From Candidatus Falkowbacteria bacterium (lineage in GTDB: Bacteria; Patescibacteriota; Patescibacteriia; Patescibacteriales; UBA12465), in assembly GCA_037137655.1 (NCBI GenBank), contig JBAXJX010000001.1:225188-289187 (forward strand): DNA of 64,000 nucleotides, written 5' to 3'. Shown here piece after piece: positions 21,599 through 28,786 of the stretch. The first letter of the stretch is position 1. Each line of letters opens with the position of its first letter. A program made the position numbers and the translations under genes. The notes below the pieces were generated by a model. The model was given only the letters and a program-made list of their open reading frames with translations. It ran no database searches and was not told the origin of the DNA.

Positions 21599-22441
21599 TT
21601 ATTTCCCCAATTTCTTCTGACTCTGCGGTTCATCTAAATAATTATCACGACTAATTACTTTTTTACCAATACGTTTTTCTAGCTCCTTTCGGGCATGGCC
21701 AGCAATATTACCACCTTTCTTGGCAACCTGGCGATTCTCTGTAAAAGTTTCCGGTTGTTCCACTTCGGATATTTTGGTGGTTGAGACCTCAGCTAACATA
21801 TTTAAAACTAACTCTAAATTAGTCATGTTGTCGCGCAGACTTTCTTTCTTTAAGTTTTTTAAATCTTTATAATCTTTGATTTTTAATCCCGCCCAAGCAA
21901 AAGTAATATCATCGGTTAAAATAGCAAATTCATTGACAGTTTTTATTCCCCGATTAACCCACTCATTAGTTAAATCTTTTCTAATCTCAATACCCTTTAA
22001 CCTTAAATTAACCCATTCCGGGGAATAGCCTTTTTTAAGATAAGTATTTAACGATCTTTGAATAGCTAATTCCGGATCATGTACTTCTTCCACTCGTTCA
22101 TAGCCAACTCGCGCCAACCACAGCTTAAATGGCTCAGCGTTGGGTGAGGGAATTGATTGAATTAAACGAAAGATGGTTTCGGTGTCGGCCATGTCGGTTA
22201 AATAAAATTTTCCGTCAGATGCTTGCATTTTCAGTTGGTCACATTTTGTGACGACCTCACTCCCCTCGGTTTTTAGACGATTTTTTAAAGTCGTCCAGTA
22301 ACTTTGTGACTTTTTATGATCCGCTTGATGAATTAGTGCACCAACCACATCCACCACCGAAAAATACCATTTTTCTTGTTTTTCATCCCAAAGTCGACGG
22401 ATTTTGTGATCGGAGAAAAAAGCTAATTTTTTAGAGTCCAT
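21599..22441 (-). CDS. Bro-N / DinD-like (DNA-damage-inducible protein D family) protein
   Basis: FFSDHKIRRLWDEKQEKWYFSVVDVVGAL.. is a Bro-N-type N-domain, and the rest resembles DinD. Start moved to 22441 (MDSKK; alternative 22453) because the track extension runs over promoter P3. Confidence 0.65.
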   Translation of the reverse strand: MDSKKLAFFSDHKIRRLWDEKQEKWYFSVVDVVGALIHQADHKKSQSYWTTLKNRLKTEGSEVVTKCDQLKMQASDGKFYLTDMADTETIFRLIQSIPSPNAEPFKLWLARVGYERVEEVHDPELAIQRSLNTYLKKGYSPEWVNLRLKGIEIRKDLTNEWVNRGIKTVNEFAILTDDITFAWAGLKIKDYKDLKNLKKESLRDNMTNLELVLNMLAEVSTTKISEVEQPETFTENRQVAKKGGNIAGHARKELEKRIGKKVISRDNYLDEPQSQKKLGK

Positions 22442-22529
22442 AATTATATTCATTAATTGTAAATGATTATAATTATGCCAAAAGCGAGATAAATTTTTTA
22501 TAAACAAAAAATGACAAAAATCGCTAGTA

Positions 22530-22558
22530 TTGACTTTTTGGCTAAAGTGTGCTACAAT
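22530..22558 (+). promoter_or_regulatory. promoter P3 (TTGACT-N17-TGcTACAAT family) of the DGR target gene
   Basis: ttgactttttggctaaagtgtgctacaat, with the upstream tcgcta..tattgac also shared with P1. Confidence 0.6.
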
Positions 22559-22641
22559 TGGTTTATTAATCAAAGAGTGATTAATCCTCAATCTTCCGGG
22601 AAGTGAAGAAACGTTTTTTTACAACAAAAATACTTATTGTC

Positions 22642-23301
22642 ATGGCACAAAAATTTAATGTCACCGGCGACCAACATTTCGGACTTACAGGACAAATGCT
22701 CGAAATTCAACGTCAAATTCGTCTAAACGGCGGTAGTCCAATCAATCCAGAATTAGTTAAAATTGCTTTACAAAATATTATTGAAGGCAAATTTAATACT
22801 TCTGAATCTCCGATTAAAAATTATATTCTCCGTCCATTAATTTTGGATGAAACTATGCTTATCGAAGATATTGTTAATAGCGAAGTAAGTATTGCCAAAG
22901 CTAAAGCTACCTTCAAATCGCATATCGACGACAATTTTAAAAATTGGGGACTCGATAAGTCAAGTGTTGATACTGCAGAAATTAACGTCAAACCATTTGA
23001 GCTAATCGCTAATGCTAAGTTCGCTGAAATATTTACTTCATTTTCTAACGATTTAGACGAGTTGTGTTTTACTCAAGCGCAAATTATTCGCTTCTGTGAA
23101 AAATACCCACGTCAACTTCGTCAAGATGGCAATGCTAACTTTTTCTTAATGAAAGAGAATGATGAATATTTCGTGGTTAGCGTGGGCGTGGGTTCCGGCG
23201 GCCTCGGCGTGCATGTCCGTCGTTTCGACAGTGGCAATGTCTGGGATGCTGCGTACTTGCATGGCGTTTTCGTTCCGGCAACTTGTACCTTGAAAGCTTA
23301 G
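22642..23301 (+). CDS. DGR variable (target) protein
   Basis: The C-terminal ~38 codons are the VR. ATG at 22642 (MAQKFNV) preferred over GTG at 22603. No signal peptide or TM segment seen, and the N-terminal domain is unrecognised. Confidence 0.85.
   Translation: MAQKFNVTGDQHFGLTGQMLEIQRQIRLNGGSPINPELVKIALQNIIEGKFNTSESPIKNYILRPLILDETMLIEDIVNSEVSIAKAKATFKSHIDDNFKNWGLDKSSVDTAEINVKPFELIANAKFAEIFTSFSNDLDELCFTQAQIIRFCEKYPRQLRQDGNANFFLMKENDEYFVVSVGVGSGGLGVHVRRFDSGNVWDAAYLHGVFVPATCTLKA
23169..23284 (+). repeat. DGR variable repeat (VR)
   Basis: Gap-free alignment to 23608-23723 at offset 439, with 15 mismatches at TR adenines and one C/G mismatch (VR 23263 G versus TR 23702 C). Confidence 0.85.
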
Positions 23302-23325
23302 TCTTTTGAAACTTTATTCCTTGGT

Positions 23326-23373
23326 CCCTTGGATTTTTAGAACTTAATGTTCTTGAAATTCGAGGGATTTTTT
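23326..23373 (+). terminator. long hairpin plus T-run downstream of VR (target-gene terminator)
   Basis: CCCTTGGATTTTTAGAAC-ttaat-GTTCTTGAAATTCGAGGG, 18 stem positions with 1 mismatch and 3 G-U pairs, followed by ATTTTTT. Confidence 0.6.
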
Positions 23374-23607
23374 ATTATAATAAAACTGTAGTTTTGGATA
23401 ATTCGTCGGTCATGGCTGGCGGGTCAAAACTATTTAAAAATATTTTCGAGATTTTCATCGGTTACGGCTAATGAAAGAGGGAAAGTATTTTTAACAAAAA
23501 AACATAAGTTGGTATGGAGTGCTGGCGGACTTTTAAGTCTCGAATAATATTCAGCCATTTCTTTTTTTGGTCAGAGTGGCGGTGATTCTTGATGGCATTT
23601 CATATAG

Positions 23608-23723
23608 TTTCGTGGTTAACGTGAACGTGAATTCCGACGGCCTCAACGTGAATGTCAATCGTTTCGACAATGACAATATCTGGAATGCTGCGTACTTGCA
23701 TCGCGTTTTCGTTCCGGCAACTT
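23608..23723 (+). repeat. DGR template repeat (TR)
   Basis: Non-coding copy of the VR, rich in AAC/AAT codons in the VR frame (9 AAY). 26 adenines by hand count. Homology may extend weakly to 23730. Confidence 0.85.
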
Positions 23724-24108
23724 ACAAATTTCTCCCTCGCTCACGCGGGGGAGTTTTGTTTTCCAAACCTTTTTTCCATCCGCCCAACATGCGCCCGATT
23801 TCATCCAGTTTTTCCGATAGCTCGGAATATTTTACATTGGCCACACATTTATTTTCCCAAGCTAGTTGCAGAAAAAATTTGAGACTGTCGAGTTTTAAAA
23901 TCGCGAGTGATAATTGGTTTGACTTTTTGTCACCAGCGAGATAAATTGTAATGAAAATATTTTCCAGAAGTGCTAGAAAATTTGTTTCAATTTTCCCGCC
24001 CAAATTATAGCGATAGACTTTGGGAAAATCAGCCAGCAACCCAAACCAAAAACTATAAGCTTCTTTGGCCTTTAATAGCACGACCGGTGAAGAGATACTT
24101 GTGCTCAT
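23722..24108 (-). CDS. avd: Avd-like accessory variability determinant (four-helix bundle)
   Basis: LAGDKKSNQLSLAILKLDSLKFFLQLAWE...LSEKLDEIGRMLGGWKK parallels Bordetella phage Avd as I recall it (VAGKSNQVSKLYAADAGLAMLRFWLRFLA...AEVGRILGSWI). Encoded opposite to TR and RT. Confidence 0.8.
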   Translation of the reverse strand: MSTSISSPVVLLKAKEAYSFWFGLLADFPKVYRYNLGGKIETNFLALLENIFITIYLAGDKKSNQLSLAILKLDSLKFFLQLAWENKCVANVKYSELSEKLDEIGRMLGGWKKGLENKTPPRERGRNL

Positions 24109-24116
24109 AAAGATAA

Positions 24117-25112
24117 ATGAAAAAATTTACTAAAACTTATCAAGAAATTATGACTGTGCCGAATTTACTTCGAGCTTGGGAAGAATTTTTGTCCGGTAAG
24201 AAAAAACGGCGCGATGTGCTTATTTTTCAAGGTCAGTTAATGAATAATATTCTGGCGCTTTTTTATAGTTTGAAATCCAAAACTTATTGCCACGCCGGTT
24301 ATCAAGCTTTTAAAATTTCCGACCCAAAACCGCGCGATATTCATAAGGCGACGGTGCGTGATCGTTTGCTCCATCATCTGCTCTATCAAGAAATGTACGA
24401 TTATTTTGATCGGCAATTTATTAATGATTCTTATTCTTGTCGTTTTAATAAAGGCACGCATCGAGCGATTTATCGTTTGGCGGAATTTGCCGGCCGCGTT
24501 TCTGTAAATAATAGAAAAACAGTCTGGATTTTGAAATGTGATATTCGAAAATTTTTTGCCAGTATTGATCATAAAGTTTTAAAAAATATTTTAGCCAGAT
24601 ATATTCTTGATCAAGATTTGTTGTGGTTATTCGGACAAGTAATTGATAGTTTTAATACGACCGATAAAATTGGCGTCGGCTTGCCACTCGGAAATTTAAC
24701 TTCACAACTTTTAGTTAATGTTTATATGAACGAATTTGATCAATTTGTGAAACGGGATTTAAAAGTTAAATATTATATTCGTTATGCCGATGATTTTGTT
24801 TTTTTAAGTCCGGATAAAAATTACTTAATTAATTTGCGCTCGCAACTGGATAAGTTCTTGAACGATGAACTAAAATTAACGATGCATCCCAAAAAAGTTT
24901 TTCTGACTACTTTGAATAGCGGAGTTGATTTCTTGGGTTGGGTAAATTTTACTGATCATCGGGTTTTGCGCACTAAAACTAAACGCCGAATGTTGGTCAG
25001 GATTACTAAAAGCAATAAATTGGCGACGCGAGCAGCTTATGCAGCGATGTTGAAACATGGTAATGCTTATAAATTAAGTCAAAGAGCGAAATTGATTAAC
25101 AAAGAACAATAG
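24117..25112 (+). CDS. DGR reverse transcriptase
   Basis: RT domain blocks (PRDIHKATVRDRLLHH, SYSCRFNKGTH, DIRKFFASIDH, LPLGNLTSQLLVNVYMNEFD, YIRYADDFVF). The GxxxSQ motif is DGR-type rather than retron or group II intron. Confidence 0.9.
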   Translation: MKKFTKTYQEIMTVPNLLRAWEEFLSGKKKRRDVLIFQGQLMNNILALFYSLKSKTYCHAGYQAFKISDPKPRDIHKATVRDRLLHHLLYQEMYDYFDRQFINDSYSCRFNKGTHRAIYRLAEFAGRVSVNNRKTVWILKCDIRKFFASIDHKVLKNILARYILDQDLLWLFGQVIDSFNTTDKIGVGLPLGNLTSQLLVNVYMNEFDQFVKRDLKVKYYIRYADDFVFLSPDKNYLINLRSQLDKFLNDELKLTMHPKKVFLTTLNSGVDFLGWVNFTDHRVLRTKTKRRMLVRITKSNKLATRAAYAAMLKHGNAYKLSQRAKLINKEQ

Positions 25113-25155
25113 CATTTTTTTAATATTTTGGCAAGCGCTATTATTAGTAAAATCA

Positions 25156-25184
25156 TTGACACTGCTCACAATTTGTTATATTAT
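25156..25184 (+). promoter_or_regulatory. sigma70-type promoter for rpsB-tsf
   Basis: TTGACA (25156-25161)-N17-TATTAT (25179-25184), followed by a ~120-nt leader containing small hairpins. Confidence 0.55.
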
Positions 25185-25309
25185 TACATCTAGAGACCTT
25201 TAGATCTCTATTTTATTTATTAAAAAATCACACTTTCTATTTTTCTTGGCTAATTTTAGCCTGATTGAGAGTGGTAGCTCGCCTTTGAGCGGGGTAAAAA
25301 GAAAAAACT

Positions 25310-26002
25310 ATGAAAACAAAGTTAAACATCGAGGATTTGTTTAAAGCTGGGGCTCATTTTGGTCACCGTACTAATCGTTGGCACCCAAAAATGAAAGAAT
25401 ATATCCATTCTTCTAAGAAAGGTATTTATTTAATTGATTTGAACAAAACTCAAGATCAATTAGACGTTGCTTGTGATTACATCCAAAAATTAATCAAAGA
25501 AGATAAAAATGTTTTATTCGTAGGTACAAAAAATCAAGTTAAAAAACCAATGCGCGCTATGGCGGAAGAAACTGGTATGCCATATGTAGTCGGTAAATGG
25601 TTAGGTGGTTATATCACTAACTTCGCGGTAGTAAAAAAATCTATTAAAAAATACACTGATTTATTAGCTCAAAGAGAGAGCGGTCAATTAGAAAAATATA
25701 ATAAAAAAGAAAGATTAAATATCGATCGTGAGATCAAAAAATTAGAAGCTCGTGTTGGTGGTTTAGCCAACTTAAATAAATTGCCAGACGCTTTATTTGT
25801 TTGGGATTTAAAACAAGAAGAAATTGCTATCGAAGAGGCTCGTGCTAAGAACATCCCACTTATTGGTATTTGTGATACTAATGTTAATCCAGAATTATTG
25901 GATTACCCAATTCCAGCCAATGATGATTCTAGCAAGACTGTAAAATTGATCTTGGATCATGTGAAAGAGGCTATTTTAGAAGCCAAAAAAGAAAAGAAAT
26001 AA
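25310..26002 (+). CDS. rpsB: ribosomal protein uS2
   Basis: LFKAGAHFGHRTNRWHPKM signature. Confidence 0.95.
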   Translation: MKTKLNIEDLFKAGAHFGHRTNRWHPKMKEYIHSSKKGIYLIDLNKTQDQLDVACDYIQKLIKEDKNVLFVGTKNQVKKPMRAMAEETGMPYVVGKWLGGYITNFAVVKKSIKKYTDLLAQRESGQLEKYNKKERLNIDREIKKLEARVGGLANLNKLPDALFVWDLKQEEIAIEEARAKNIPLIGICDTNVNPELLDYPIPANDDSSKTVKLILDHVKEAILEAKKEKK

Positions 26003-26036
26003 TTATTAAAAAGTAAATAATTAATAATATAAAAAT

Positions 26037-26834
26037 ATGGAATTAATTAAAACTCTACGTGATCGCACCGGCGCTGGCATGGTGGAATGTAAAAAAGCTT
26101 TAGATGAATCTGGTAATGATATTGAAAAGGCGATTGAGATCTTGCGTAAGAAAGGTATTGCGAAAGCTGCTAAACGTGGTGATCGTGAAACTAGCGAAGG
26201 TATCGTTTTAGTAGCCGCCAATGATGATAATACTGAAGGTTATATCATGGAGTTGGATAGCGAAACTGATTTCGTGTCTCGTAATGATAAATTTCAATCA
26301 TTTGCCGCTGAAGCTATGTCTTTAATTAAAGCTAACAAACCAGCTTCTTTAGAAGCTTTATATGCCTTGAAAATGGCTGATGGTTTAGCTTTGAAAGAAT
26401 CTTTGGAAATTTTAAGTGGTACAATCGGTGAAAAATTAGAATTAAAACGTTTTGAAATAGTGAGTGGTGCGACTGTAGCAGCTTATTCTCATGCTGGTGG
26501 TCGAATTGGTGTTTTAGTTGTTTTAGATGCTGCCGGCAAAAAAGATTTAGCCGGTGATATCGCTATGCAAGTAGCAGCTGCTAATCCACGATATATAAAT
26601 TCAGACGAAGTTCCAGCTACTGAAATTGAAGCGGAAAAAGCAATTTACCGTGAACAATTAATTAAAGAAGGCAAACCAGAAGCAATGATTGAAAAAATTG
26701 CCGAAGGTAAGATTAACAAATTTTTCTCAGAAATTTGTTTGGCTAAACAAGAATTTATTAAAGACGATAAGCAAAGTGTGGAAGCTATTTTGGCTGGTAC
26801 AAAGATTGAAAAATTCGTGCGCTATTCTCTTTAA
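26037..26834 (+). CDS. tsf: elongation factor Ts
   Basis: IKTLRDRTGAGMVECKKAL UBA-like N-terminus. Follows rpsB. Confidence 0.95.
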   Translation: MELIKTLRDRTGAGMVECKKALDESGNDIEKAIEILRKKGIAKAAKRGDRETSEGIVLVAANDDNTEGYIMELDSETDFVSRNDKFQSFAAEAMSLIKANKPASLEALYALKMADGLALKESLEILSGTIGEKLELKRFEIVSGATVAAYSHAGGRIGVLVVLDAAGKKDLAGDIAMQVAAANPRYINSDEVPATEIEAEKAIYREQLIKEGKPEAMIEKIAEGKINKFFSEICLAKQEFIKDDKQSVEAILAGTKIEKFVRYSL

Positions 26835-26850
26835 TTACTCACTTTAAATT

Positions 26851-27663
26851 ATGAAAATTGTTCAAGTGCAGTTTGCGCCCTGGGACAAGAAATATAACTT
26901 TTCTCCGGCTGGTTTAGATTTGTCCGTGGGTGATGATGTTATTGTTGACACTGAATTTGGTTTGGAATTTGGCAAGGTGGCTGGTTTTAGTGAGGTTAGC
27001 TCAGAAGAAGCCGAAACTATTAAGCCGGTTGTGCGCAAAGCGGCTGTCGCTGATTACGAAAAAATAAGCAACGCTAATCGCAAAGAAGAGGTCATGGATT
27101 ATTGTCATCAGTTAATTCTTAACTATGAGCTGCCAATGAAATTGGTGGATGTTCATTTTTCTTTATCTGGTAACAAAATTAATTTTGCTTTCGCTTCTGA
27201 TGGTCGTGTTGATTTTCGGCAATTAGTTAAAGACTTAACTGTCCATTTTAATTCTGGTATTCGTTTGACTCAAATCGGTAGTCGAGATGAGGCGCGTATT
27301 TCCGGTGATTGTGGTCATTGTGGTCGTGAACTTTGTTGTAAGAAATTTATTAAAGATTTTTCTTCTATTAGTTCGGAGATGGCTGAAGCACAACAAGTTG
27401 TGCATCGCGGTAGTGATCGGATCTCTGGTCAATGTGGCCGTTTGATGTGCTGCTTGCAATATGAGTACGAAGGTTATCAAGATTTGGCGAAAAAGTTACC
27501 ACCACTTGGGGCTCGTGTTAACGTTGATGGTCGGCGCGGTGAAGTGCTTAGTCATCACGTTTTGAAGCAGTCGGTGAGTGTTAAATTCCCAGGTGATCGC
27601 GGTGAAGGTTACACGATTGTTGAGGTTGACCTTAATCGTCATAATAAGCCTAAAAAAGAATAG
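26851..27663 (+). CDS. PSP1-domain protein (YaaT/RicT-like)
   Basis: PSP1 C-terminal domain pattern with the Cys cluster (CGHCGRELCCKKF ... GQCGRLMCCLQYE). Confidence 0.8.
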   Translation: MKIVQVQFAPWDKKYNFSPAGLDLSVGDDVIVDTEFGLEFGKVAGFSEVSSEEAETIKPVVRKAAVADYEKISNANRKEEVMDYCHQLILNYELPMKLVDVHFSLSGNKINFAFASDGRVDFRQLVKDLTVHFNSGIRLTQIGSRDEARISGDCGHCGRELCCKKFIKDFSSISSEMAEAQQVVHRGSDRISGQCGRLMCCLQYEYEGYQDLAKKLPPLGARVNVDGRRGEVLSHHVLKQSVSVKFPGDRGEGYTIVEVDLNRHNKPKKE

Positions 27664-27677
27664 TTGATATATTGGTA

Positions 27678-27705
27678 AAAGAGCGTCTAAAAACGCTCTT
27701 TTATT
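27678..27705 (+). terminator. intrinsic terminator
   Basis: AAAGAGCG-8 nt-CGCTCTTT followed by TATT. Confidence 0.6.
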
Positions 27706-27710
27706 GTAAT

Positions 27711-27739
27711 TTGACTAGCAGCGCCACTTAGGGTAATAT
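27711..27739 (+). promoter_or_regulatory. sigma70-type promoter for mreB
   Basis: TTGACT (27711-27716)-N17-TAATAT (27734-27739). Confidence 0.55.
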
Positions 27740-27772
27740 TATAGTATTATTTGATATAATTTCATAAAAACT

Positions 27773-28786
27773 ATGTTCGCAAAACGCATTGGAATTGATC
27801 TCGGAACAACTTATACTTTGGTTTATCTACCGAAACGCGGCGTGGTTATTAATGAACCTAGTGTTGTGGCGGTTTCCAAGGATGATCGTAAAATTTTAGC
27901 TGTCGGTAATGAAGCGAAAGATATGTTAGGTCGCACGCCGGATACGATTGTAGCTTTAAAACCATTGAAAGATGGTGTGATTGCTGATTACAAAACAACT
28001 GAAGCGATGTTGCGTTATTTTATTAATAAAACTTTAGGCGGTATGCGTATTTTTCGTCCGGAAGTTATGGTGGCGGTGCCAGCTGGTATTTCCTCAACGG
28101 AACGACGTGCGGTAATTGAAGCGACTATTGCGGCTGGAGCTAAAGCAGCTTACATTATTAAAGAACCGGTAGCAGCGGCGATTGGGGCTGATATTCCGAT
28201 TTCTTCAGCAACTGGTCATATGATTATTGATATTGGCGGCGGCACAGCGGAAATGGCCGTGATCTCTTTGGGTGGTGTCGTGGCCTCAACTTCAGTTCGG
28301 GTTGGTGGCGAAAAATTTGATTTAGCGATTTTGGAATATATAAAAAAGAAGCACGGTTTAATGATTGGTGAACGCACTGCAGAAGAAATTAAAATTAAAG
28401 TTGGCTCCGCTTTATTTTTACCAGATGAAGAACGATTAAGCATGGAAATAAACGGTCGCGATATGGTTTCTGGTTTGCCAAAAACTTTAACTATTACTAG
28501 TGATGATGTGACTGAGGCGATTCAAAATGAACTTGAAGAAATAATCAGTGCGACAAAAAGAATTTTACAAAAAACTCCACCGGAATTGGTGGCGGATATT
28601 ATTGAAAAGGGAATTGTGATTTCTGGCGGCAGTGCACTTTTACGGCATATTGACCAACTTTTCTCCCGGGCTATTGGTGTTGCGGCTTATATCGCCGACG
28701 ATCCAATGTTGTGCGTAGCTAAGGGAACTGGAATTGCTTTAGATAATTTAGATTCATATAAACGCAGTATTTTAGCGACAAAATAA
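27773..28786 (+). CDS. mreB: rod-shape protein MreB
   Basis: Actin-fold motifs GIDLGTTYT and IDIGGGTAE, MreB-like over the full length. Confidence 0.95.
   Translation: MFAKRIGIDLGTTYTLVYLPKRGVVINEPSVVAVSKDDRKILAVGNEAKDMLGRTPDTIVALKPLKDGVIADYKTTEAMLRYFINKTLGGMRIFRPEVMVAVPAGISSTERRAVIEATIAAGAKAAYIIKEPVAAAIGADIPISSATGHMIIDIGGGTAEMAVISLGGVVASTSVRVGGEKFDLAILEYIKKKHGLMIGERTAEEIKIKVGSALFLPDEERLSMEINGRDMVSGLPKTLTITSDDVTEAIQNELEEIISATKRILQKTPPELVADIIEKGIVISGGSALLRHIDQLFSRAIGVAAYIADDPMLCVAKGTGIALDNLDSYKRSILATK

Follow-up and report, generated by a model that had tools for sequence, protein, structure and literature searches.

A 5' leader may enclose the template repeat of a patescibacterial diversity-generating retroelement with an inverted avd gene

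Introduction

The subject of this report is a diversity-generating retroelement (DGR) in a 64,000-nucleotide (nt) stretch of a Candidatus Falkowbacteria contig (GenBank assembly GCA_037137655.1, contig JBAXJX010000001.1, positions 225,188 to 289,187 of the forward strand); this whole stretch is called the window, and positions are counted from its first base. A described system with which its RNA can be compared is the DGR of Bordetella phage BPP-1, which has the order mtd-avd-TR-Sp-brt, where TR is the template repeat and Sp is the spacer. Based on cryo-electron microscopy of the Bordetella system, Sp47-56 pairs with TR117-129 to form the template:primer duplex, in which A56 is the primer and G57 follows it, and Sp59-70 pairs with avd369-379, just upstream of TR, to form the “cPRT Stop” (Handa et al. 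2024, bioRxiv 10.1101/2023.10.23.563531). The Avd-binding stem-loop of the same RNA is Sp3-33 (Handa et al. 2024).

The DGRs of the candidate phyla radiation (CPR) are organized differently. Wu et al. (2018, Nucleic Acids Res 46:11, PMC5758913) catalogued an architecture, B3, with the order TR-(avd)-RT, in which the parentheses denote the reverse strand and RT is the reverse transcriptase gene; B3 makes up 90% of their CPR DGR set. Table S3 of Handa et al. (2024) flags 90 CPR DGR rows as “+TR with Avd 5',” that is, with post-TR sequence overlapping Avd, and it lists for CPR DGRs a hairpin class, CUCC..GGAG, that lies 13-36 nt after TR, has 9 base pairs (bp) as its commonest stem length, and is a putative Avd-binding stem-loop. 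Roux et al. (2021) report nothing on avd orientation or transcripts.

An inverted avd gene alone thus teaches nothing new. The question is a different one: how does a DGR function when an antisense gene occupies the position of the essential Bordetella 3' spacer? The comparative evidence outlined below leads to a testable answer, in which the pairing strand of the spacer would have moved to a 5' leader and the RNA would end inside the last avd codons. We put at about 60% the probability of this reading as a whole, in which the locus is a B3 member with a self-contained TR RNA of ~375 nt, duplexes supplied by the leader, and a terminator-like hairpin.

Results

The locus is an ordinary B3 cassette

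The cassette contains a direct repeat of 116 nt, and its two copies differ at 16 positions, 15 of which are adenines in TR and lie in codon position 1 or 2 of the target frame. Because 15 of the 16 mismatches have A in the second copy, the second copy is TR, and the template RNA must be the plus strand. The first copy, the variable repeat (VR), lies inside the 3' end of the target gene and ends 17 nt before its stop codon; the target protein has no match in Pfam or NCBIfam. The RT carries the sequence LGNLTSQ, which fits the (I/L)GxxxSQ motif that we take to be a hallmark of DGR-clade RTs, and its closest NCBIfam model is a group II intron RT, under that model's cut-off. Between TR and RT lies a minus-strand open reading frame (ORF), avd, which fills the whole interval: its stop codon, TAA, is read from the complement of 23722-23724 and shares the final two bases of TR homology, and only 8 nt separate its ATG, which begins at 24108, from that of RT, which begins at 24117. 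The first-pass annotation had described this arrangement from the sequence, and all of its coordinates proved correct when the sequence and the ORF list were reread. A plus-strand ORF of 125 amino acids (23567-23944), which consists of TR in frame followed by antisense avd, was not treated as a gene.

Is the minus-strand ORF really avd? As that annotation had assumed, it is. The ORF matches Pfam family PF22296 (bAvd) over residues 15-114 (E=5e-13, 49.9 bits, gathering cut-off 40), and its sole NCBIfam match is NF033474 (DivGenRetAVD, “diversity-generating retroelement protein Avd”) at 62.2 bits, under the 80-bit equivalog cut-off. Database homologues number 634, including one identical protein from a Candidatus Falkowbacteria metagenome-assembled genome (MAG) and many others that are ~75% identical; their alignment is strongly conserved to residue ~118 and variable beyond it. 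An AlphaFold (AF2) model based on this family alignment has a mean predicted local distance difference test score (pLDDT) of 89.1, with helices at residues 9-25, 36-54, 59-85, and 91-118 and a low-confidence tail. A PDB sequence search with the Avd profile gave one weak match, to 4dwl (E=0.71), so that a fold search was needed. Foldseek then matched the model to Bordetella Avd, as the isolated protein (4dwl) and as part of the RT-Avd-RNA complex (8ub7), with template modeling (TM) scores of 0.74-0.76 by query and 0.85-0.90 by target, and to the S23-family bundles 2gsc (E=8e-5) and 2rld. Profile and structure searches thus agree on a real Avd with a four-helix bundle like that of Bordetella; its C-terminal tail, TPPRERGRNL, is disordered and variable.

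We surveyed 80 related loci from species-representative genomes, nearly all of them Patescibacteria MAGs, for the inverted avd. RT is present in 77 of the 80, and in all 77 it lies on the strand opposite to avd, head to head with it, so that the arrangement cannot be put down to chance. The start codons of avd and RT are separated by 6-13 nt in the 25 closest loci; most of the others have a gap of no more than ~60 nt or overlap slightly, although start-codon calls are rough for distant loci. An A-biased TR lies next to the avd stop, on the same strand as RT, in 66 loci, with spacings that run from a 43-nt gap to an overlap of at least 40 nt, and VR sits 410-500 nt upstream of TR in nearly all relatives. 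The 2-nt TR/avd overlap and the 8-nt avd-RT gap seen here are ordinary values of a conserved cassette. The order of TR, inverted avd, and RT, the patescibacterial host, and the upstream target with a C-terminal VR are those of architecture B3, and the gene layout is identical to that described by Wu et al. (2018), who do not treat transcripts, a 5' leader, or the consequences of the overlap. The inverted avd, which the first-pass annotation did not know to have been characterized, is therefore a catalogued norm of the clade, its overlap with post-TR sequence is also flagged by Handa et al. (2024, Table S3), and the locus is an ordinary B3 member of the CPR/Patescibacteria DGRs.

Several contigs in the survey carry labels from other phyla, with Avd proteins 69-77% identical to the Falkowbacteria protein: L003, L005, L007, L011, and L012 (uncultured Gammaproteobacteria), L010 (Ignavibacteria), and L014 (Nanoarchaeia). 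These labels probably reflect misbinning or automatic mislabeling rather than transfer between phyla.

A conserved promoter precedes a covarying leader

The stretch between VR and TR is highly conserved and measures 290-416 nt in 56 of 57 loci and 487 nt in the other one. After the target stop codon come, in order, a hairpin with a U6 run, a promoter, and a leader that begins at 23388. Within 22500-25400, no other site resembles a promoter as closely as this sigma-70-like one. In an alignment of 30 loci (A2) its -10 positions do not vary, and, by the same criteria, 38 of 57 relatives have a promoter site 220-250 nt upstream of TR.

The leader, which occupies the ~220 nt between the TATAAT element and TR (23388-23607), is a conserved and strongly covarying structured RNA. 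RNAalifold on A2 yields 61 pairs, 54 of which show compensatory changes. In these pairs 93.1% of the alignment cells are paired, compared with 43-51% when the partners are slid by 1-3 columns, and the covariation score is 0.654, compared with 0.12-0.18 in the slid controls; all 500 shuffles fall short of the observed values on every measure. Helices 1-5, which make up P1 and P2, have 88-98% of cells paired and compensatory changes in 33 of 38 pairs, and the minimum free energy (MFE) fold of the window agrees with them. Helix 6, the long-range helix of P3, is 94.9% paired, with compensatory changes in 10 of its 12 pairs; it encloses a GGAC..GUCU hairpin (23527-23540), the conserved segment CGAAUAAUAUUCAG (23541-23554), and a variable hairpin. 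A covariance model of P3 (R1) has a single match in the window, at 23495-23607 on the plus strand, and one copy in 76 of the 80 loci (77 of 81 sources), and every copy lies just 5' of TR, on the same strand as RT; ~37 of the matched loci lie outside the set used to build the model. A search of 22500-25400 on both strands returned no Rfam match at E<=1.

The hairpin between the target gene and the promoter deserves separate mention. As in other DGRs, an inverted repeat lies downstream of VR, in the region of the initiation of mutagenic homing (IMH) sequence. Its arms (23323-23369) covary by eye in columns 101-180 of A2, and with the U6 run it probably terminates the target gene and may correspond to the inverted repeat that follows VR in Bordetella. 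This probable terminator (-24.8 kcal/mol, then U6) overlaps the -35 element of the TR-RNA promoter (23323-23381), and the overlap would pack target-gene termination and template-RNA initiation into ~60 nt.

One leader strand pairs with the TR 3' end and with the segment upstream of TR

An invariant UUGG (23509-23512) marks the junction of two long-range pairings. In the MFE fold of the 378-nt RNA that spans 23388-23765, 19 consecutive leader bases (23505-23523) are paired, the first 7 with the 3' end of TR (23718-23724, strand a') and the next 12 with the segment immediately 5' of TR (23594-23605). The UUGG and the A-rich strand 5' of P3 are together complementary to the TR 3' end and to the linker before the downstream hairpin. 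Both pairings are supported by covariation and by comparison of cognate with non-cognate partners. Across 47 loci, the duplex between leader strand a and a' averages -5.34 kcal/mol for cognate and -3.52 kcal/mol for non-cognate partners, a difference that none of 20000 shuffles reaches. Strands a and a' change together, for example as AAUUAUAAGUUG/CAACUUAUAAUU and UCAAUAAUUG/CAAUUAUUGA, and beyond the TR/VR homology the pairing of a tracks the flank of TR and not that of VR, with covariation specific to the TR flank at positions 5-9; variable internal loops blur a position-by-position count of these pairs made without gaps. Because one strand makes both duplexes, TR is looped out between two adjacent duplexes.

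The pairing with the upstream segment bears directly on an existing prediction. In the folds of Handa et al. (2024), which took in only 40 nt before TR and 100 nt after it, the stop duplex falls in antisense avd. In this clade, the covarying partner of the upstream segment is instead the leader. When the leader strand is paired with the 40 nt upstream of TR, cognate combinations reach -17.6 kcal/mol and non-cognate ones -10.4 kcal/mol (0 of 20000 shuffles; median rank of the cognate partner, 1 of 47). When the 100 nt of antisense avd are paired with the same 40 nt, there is no cognate preference (-20.9 and -20.6 kcal/mol; 4327 of 20000 shuffles; median rank, 22 of 47), and GGCGG/CCGCC pairing of the kind that Handa et al. 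list is intact in only 8 of 44 loci. For this clade, we therefore reject a stop duplex that antisense avd would form with the 40 nt before TR.

A further feature of the TR 3' end, around 23718 in the window, is a fixed difference between TR and VR. In 18 of 45 distinct loci (among them L018, L026, L030, L037, L038, L066, and L078), TR has CCG-A-AACU or CCGAAAAUGA at the place where the cognate VR always has CCG-C-AACU (CCGCAACUGA); loci of the AAAAUG class have a matching UUUUC in the leader. From its sequence, the fixed A/C difference looks like an IMH*/IMH-type discriminator between donor and recipient, as opposed to random mutagenesis. The variable A mismatches extend to within ~5-7 nt of the CG[C/A]AACU motif, a limit that would fit initiation of cDNA there but is not proof of it.

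A terminator-like hairpin follows TR

A hairpin begins 8 nt after TR. It has the form CUCCCUCGC-UCAC-GCGGGGGAG, with 9 bp, 7 of them G-C, and a 4-nt loop, and it is followed by UUUUGUUUU. Hairpin and U-tract together are antisense to avd codons 116-126. The element belongs to the CUCC..GGAG class that Handa et al. (2024, Table S3) list for CPR DGRs, and every parsed relative has the same design, CUCC/CUCU...GGAG/GAGAG and then UUUUNUUUU. All 47 parsed relatives contain the hairpin, as 44 distinct sequences, with medians of 9 bp for the stem and -12.5 kcal/mol for the energy; the inner stem occurs in 32 different sequences, all of them compensated, and 7-8 of the 9 bases after the hairpin are U in 45 of the 47. 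With a G+C-rich stem-loop directly followed by a U-run, the element has the sequence of a rho-independent terminator, and termination is predicted to occur there. The conserved, structured RNA of ~140 nt that lies 3' of TR in Bordetella was not found here; of that RNA, the post-TR stem-loop is the sole element present.

Depending on the locus, the avd stop codon is placed before, inside, or after the 5' arm of the hairpin. The avd reading frame simply continues through the RNA element as far as the first stop.

Constraint on avd is confined to the codons opposite the hairpin

If an RNA with a function ran through avd, what trace would it leave on the gene? For 81 avd and 75 RT genes, we compared the codon entropy observed at columns with a conserved amino acid with that expected. 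At avd codons 101-115, the observed/expected ratio is 0.70-1.02 and mostly 0.9-1.0. It then drops to 0.24 at codon 116 (E), 0.00 at codon 118 (K), 0.16 at codon 119 (T), and 0.56 at codon 120 (P). The mean over the last eight usable avd codons is 0.61, and no other eight-codon window is as low, either in avd (0 of 61) or in RT (0 of 200). K118 is AAA in all sequences, and E116 and T119 are nearly single-codon, well beyond the expectation from codon usage.

The frozen codons (116-120) are exactly those that face the U-tract and the 3' arm of the hairpin. Because they occur only there, the nucleotide-level constraint ends at ~23763, short of the main part of avd, whose synonymous sites are neutral from codon 115 inwards. 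On this basis we reject a functional RNA that spans the avd body. Two claims of the first-pass annotation fall short on the same grounds. It had proposed that the post-TR spacer needed for priming would be fully antisense to avd, but constraint stops at codon 116 and the segment upstream of TR pairs with the leader and not with antisense avd; and whole-gene antisense coupling between template RNA and Avd dosage finds no support in a gene whose synonymous sites are neutral over its body. Some antisense interplay may still arise by read-through, or where the transcripts converge at their 3' ends or overlap at their 5' ends.

Initiation of RT and avd

The absence of intergenic room between avd and RT implies that an RT transcript must start in avd or cross it and that an avd transcript must start inside RT. 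The annotation had reasoned that the RT promoter must lie inside avd and the avd promoter inside RT. Its deduction is logically sound, given that there is no intergenic space, but the sites themselves were not found: the scan used for the leader promoter gave no positional peak for either one in 58 loci.

RT codons 2-4 do show a synonymous dip, milder than that at the end of avd, with observed/expected values of 0.45-0.55 (codon 2, 0.45; codon 4, 0.55). This dip could come from an embedded avd promoter or from translation initiation. RT codons 2-5 (24120-24131, AAA AAA TTT ACT) have the complement AGTAAATTTTTT, with a weak -10-like TAAATT ~17 nt upstream of the avd ATG. The TAAAYT-like hexamer antisense to RT codons 2-4 is thus a candidate -10 element for avd embedded in RT, although the sequence gives only a hint of this.

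Initiation without a leader or without a Shine-Dalgarno sequence was considered as a peculiarity of avd and RT and rejected as uninformative, since the neighboring housekeeping genes rpsB, tsf, and mreB are also without a Shine-Dalgarno sequence. The A/T-rich regions upstream of rpsB, tsf, the ORF at 26851, and mreB (25285-27775) have no recognizable Shine-Dalgarno sequence, and mreB has a TATAAT 13 nt before its ATG. These sequences suggest that initiation independent of Shine-Dalgarno sequences, or very short leaders, may be the norm in this genome.

Feature coordinates and genomic neighborhood

The features of the cassette are collected in Table 1. On its target side, the cassette is flanked by a minus-strand ORF (21599-22591) that encodes 330 amino acids with a Bro-N domain (E=2e-8), a domain common in proteins of phages and mobile elements; on the other side, rpsB and tsf follow directly from 25310. 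The DGR thus lies between a possibly mobile gene and core housekeeping genes.

Table 1. Features of the DGR cassette, in window coordinates (aa, amino acids)
Feature	Position	Strand	Description
DGR target gene	22603-23301	+	232 aa as longest ORF; internal ATG at 22642; VR at C-terminal end
VR	23169-23284	+	116-nt repeat of TR; mismatches mostly at TR adenines
Post-VR hairpin and U6 run	23323-23375	+	MFE fold; hairpin 23323-23369, -24.8 kcal/mol, 21 nt after target stop
Sigma-70-like promoter	23353-23381	+	TTGAAA-17-TATAAT; 11/12 matches; predicted TR-RNA start near 23388
Leader helices P1, P2	23388-23433, 23434-23494	+	RNAalifold on A2; each capped by a GGUYAMGGCU-type loop
Leader strand a	23505-23511	+	UAAGUUG; MFE fold; complementary to TR 3' end; includes first three bases of invariant UUGG
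Leader domain P3	23512-23605	+	12-bp long-range helix, 23512-23523 with 23594-23605; 3' strand ends 2 nt before TR
TR	23608-23723	+	116 nt; adenines on plus strand
Strand a'	23718-23724	+	CAACUUA; last six TR bases plus one; pairs with 23505-23511; overlaps avd stop codon
Hairpin and U-tract	23732-23762	+	Terminator scan; stem-loop 23732-23753; U-tract UUUUGUUUU, 23754-23762
avd	23722-24108	-	128 aa; four-helix bundle to residue 118; residues 119-128 a disordered tail, produced by translation across the hairpin
avd-RT gap	24109-24116		8 nt, AT-rich, AAAGATAA; between diverging start codons
DGR RT	24117-25112	+	331 aa; RVT_1, E=2.5e-20; PLGNLTSQ in translation

Discussion

In total, we propose a mechanism in which the conserved sigma-70-type promoter upstream of the leader starts a plus-strand RNA near 23388, whose first ~220 nt are the conserved, covarying leader. 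In the strand at 23505-23523, the 5' half pairs with the TR 3' end and the 3' half with the 12 nt upstream of TR. We posit that this strand would place the invariant GG (23511-23512) where it can prime cDNA at the 3' end of TR and would stop cDNA synthesis at the TR 5' end. Beyond TR, the hairpin and U-tract would both bind Avd and terminate the RNA, leaving a self-contained TR RNA of ~375 nt that ends near 23763. The overlap of such an RNA with avd would be limited to ~40 nt where the 3' ends converge, the last ~13 avd codons and the stop codon, and the disordered C-terminal tail of Avd is simply the hairpin element in translation. In this model, an inverted avd is tolerated in the TR-RT interval because no 3' spacer is needed. 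RT and avd diverge from the 8-nt gap, and the promoter of each must lie inside the coding sequence of the other.

How does the proposed RNA compare with that of BPP-1? The two systems share adenine-specific differences between TR and VR, an Avd with a four-helix bundle (TM 0.76/0.90 to 4dwl), a stem-loop directly 3' of TR, and a TR looped out between two adjacent duplexes of one accessory strand, which pairs with the TR 3' end first and with the upstream segment second. They differ in that avd is here inverted between TR and RT, that the conserved 140-nt 3' spacer is missing, that a U-tract follows the hairpin, and that the accessory strand lies ~100 nt 5' of TR, inside the 220-nt leader. The invariant bases at the junction are GG here, where Bordetella has A56-G57. 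Given that the accessory strand is 5' of TR and that the Bordetella 5'-to-3' order is kept, the CPR RNA looks like a circular permutation. We tentatively extend this idea to B3 (CPR) DGR RNAs in general, at somewhat less than even odds: they may be circular permutations of the Bordetella RNA, with the primer/stop strand and other protein-binding elements in a 5' leader of ~220 nt and with an end at the Avd-binding hairpin. No description of a permuted DGR RNA with a 5' leader was found in the literature searched, a search that did not include Paul et al. (2017, Nat Microbiol).

There is also a likeness to the msr-msd RNA of retrons, in topology alone, in that the proposed priming element would lie 5' of the template. 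In retrons, a priming element 5' of the template is brought to the template 3' end by long-range pairing, and a conserved G lies beside the duplex. The retron RT belongs to a different clade, however, no evidence of a 2'-5' branch is seen here, and the product would serve mutagenic homing and is not multicopy single-stranded DNA (msDNA). We regard this as an analogy and not as membership.

Several points weigh against the proposed mechanism, and they have to be considered together with the alternatives. The start of the RNA, its end, and the efficiency of termination are all inferred from sequence, and, because the loci come from related MAGs, the shuffle-based figures overstate independence. 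The a/a' duplex is weak, and its innermost pair, between G23511 and the TR position aligned to the VR C, forms in 60% of loci. For the leader core, AGUUG, complementarity to VR is 98-100% and that to TR is lower, a bias that could point instead to a role in target recognition. Might the leader be a real structured RNA that acts outside RT priming and stopping? It would then serve the stability or processing of TR RNA, riboswitch-like control, or the guiding of cDNA or RNA to VR via AGUUG, and priming would occur elsewhere, for example, at the 3' end after the hairpin. Besides the weak duplex and the consistent match of AGUUG to the end of VR, the twice-repeated GGUYAMGGCU loops of P1 and P2, which resemble ligand- or protein-binding sites, are in keeping with such a role. 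We nevertheless consider it unlikely, given that the 3' strand of P3 ends 2 nt before TR and a' lies at the TR 3' end, that one continuous strand makes both contacts in the Bordetella primer/stop order, that pairing outside the TR/VR homology covaries with the flank of TR and not with that of VR, and that no Rfam family matches the leader. A related doubt concerns the other end of the RNA, where the U-tract is also constrained by conserved Avd residues (E-N/K-K-T). The hairpin at 23732-23753 might be only an Avd-binding stem-loop, comparable to Bordetella Sp3-33, and no terminator, in which case the U-tract would be the antisense of Lys/Asn codons that the Avd C terminus needs. The hairpin class of Handa et al. 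(2024), with its putative Avd-binding role, its position 13-36 nt after TR, and its commonest stem of 9 bp, agrees with this idea, as does the conservation of residues ENKTP in Avd. Against it, K118 is always AAA, and E116 and T119 are nearly single-codon, well beyond the expectation from codon usage; the Avd tail after residue 118 is disordered and variable, and the same hairpin-plus-U-run design follows the target gene in this genome. A hairpin that only binds Avd is the alternative to which we give the least credence, and the Avd-binding and terminator roles are not mutually exclusive.

The remaining alternative is the model of the first-pass annotation itself, in which one long plus-strand transcript would run from TR through antisense avd into RT, the antisense region would be the post-TR spacer, and duplex formation or collision would couple RNA and RT levels to Avd dosage. 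Handa et al. (2024) predict stop duplexes between upstream-of-TR and antisense-avd sequence in CPR DGRs, which speaks for this model and against ours. The lack of intergenic space favors it as well, and the leader promoter is the only positionally conserved sigma-70-like promoter on the plus strand, with no conserved RT promoter inside avd. Lacking such a promoter, RT may depend on read-through from the TR promoter, which would generate the long antisense RNA that the annotation envisaged, and intrinsic terminators are often leaky. Yet a canonical hairpin and U-tract follow TR in all relatives, avd synonymous sites are neutral from codon 115 inwards, pairing with antisense avd shows no cognate preference (4327 of 20000 shuffles) and an intact GGCGG/CCGCC in only 8 of 44 loci, and the partner strands are located in the leader instead. 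Since no RT promoter is recognizable, whole-gene antisense coupling is kept alive, only through read-through of the terminator, and we judge it distinctly unlikely.

If the proposed mechanism is correct, it would explain the presence of an inverted avd in the TR-RT interval across a whole bacterial radiation, and it would give these DGRs a retron-like topology, with the primer upstream of the template. It would also correct structure predictions that are limited to 40 nt upstream of TR. The minimal CPR DGR RNA would be redefined as ~375 nt (23388-23765 here), which would guide the reconstitution of DGRs of organisms that cannot be cultured. Finally, the enclosure of TR by two duplexes would be the conserved core of DGR reverse transcription, whatever the connectivity of the strands.

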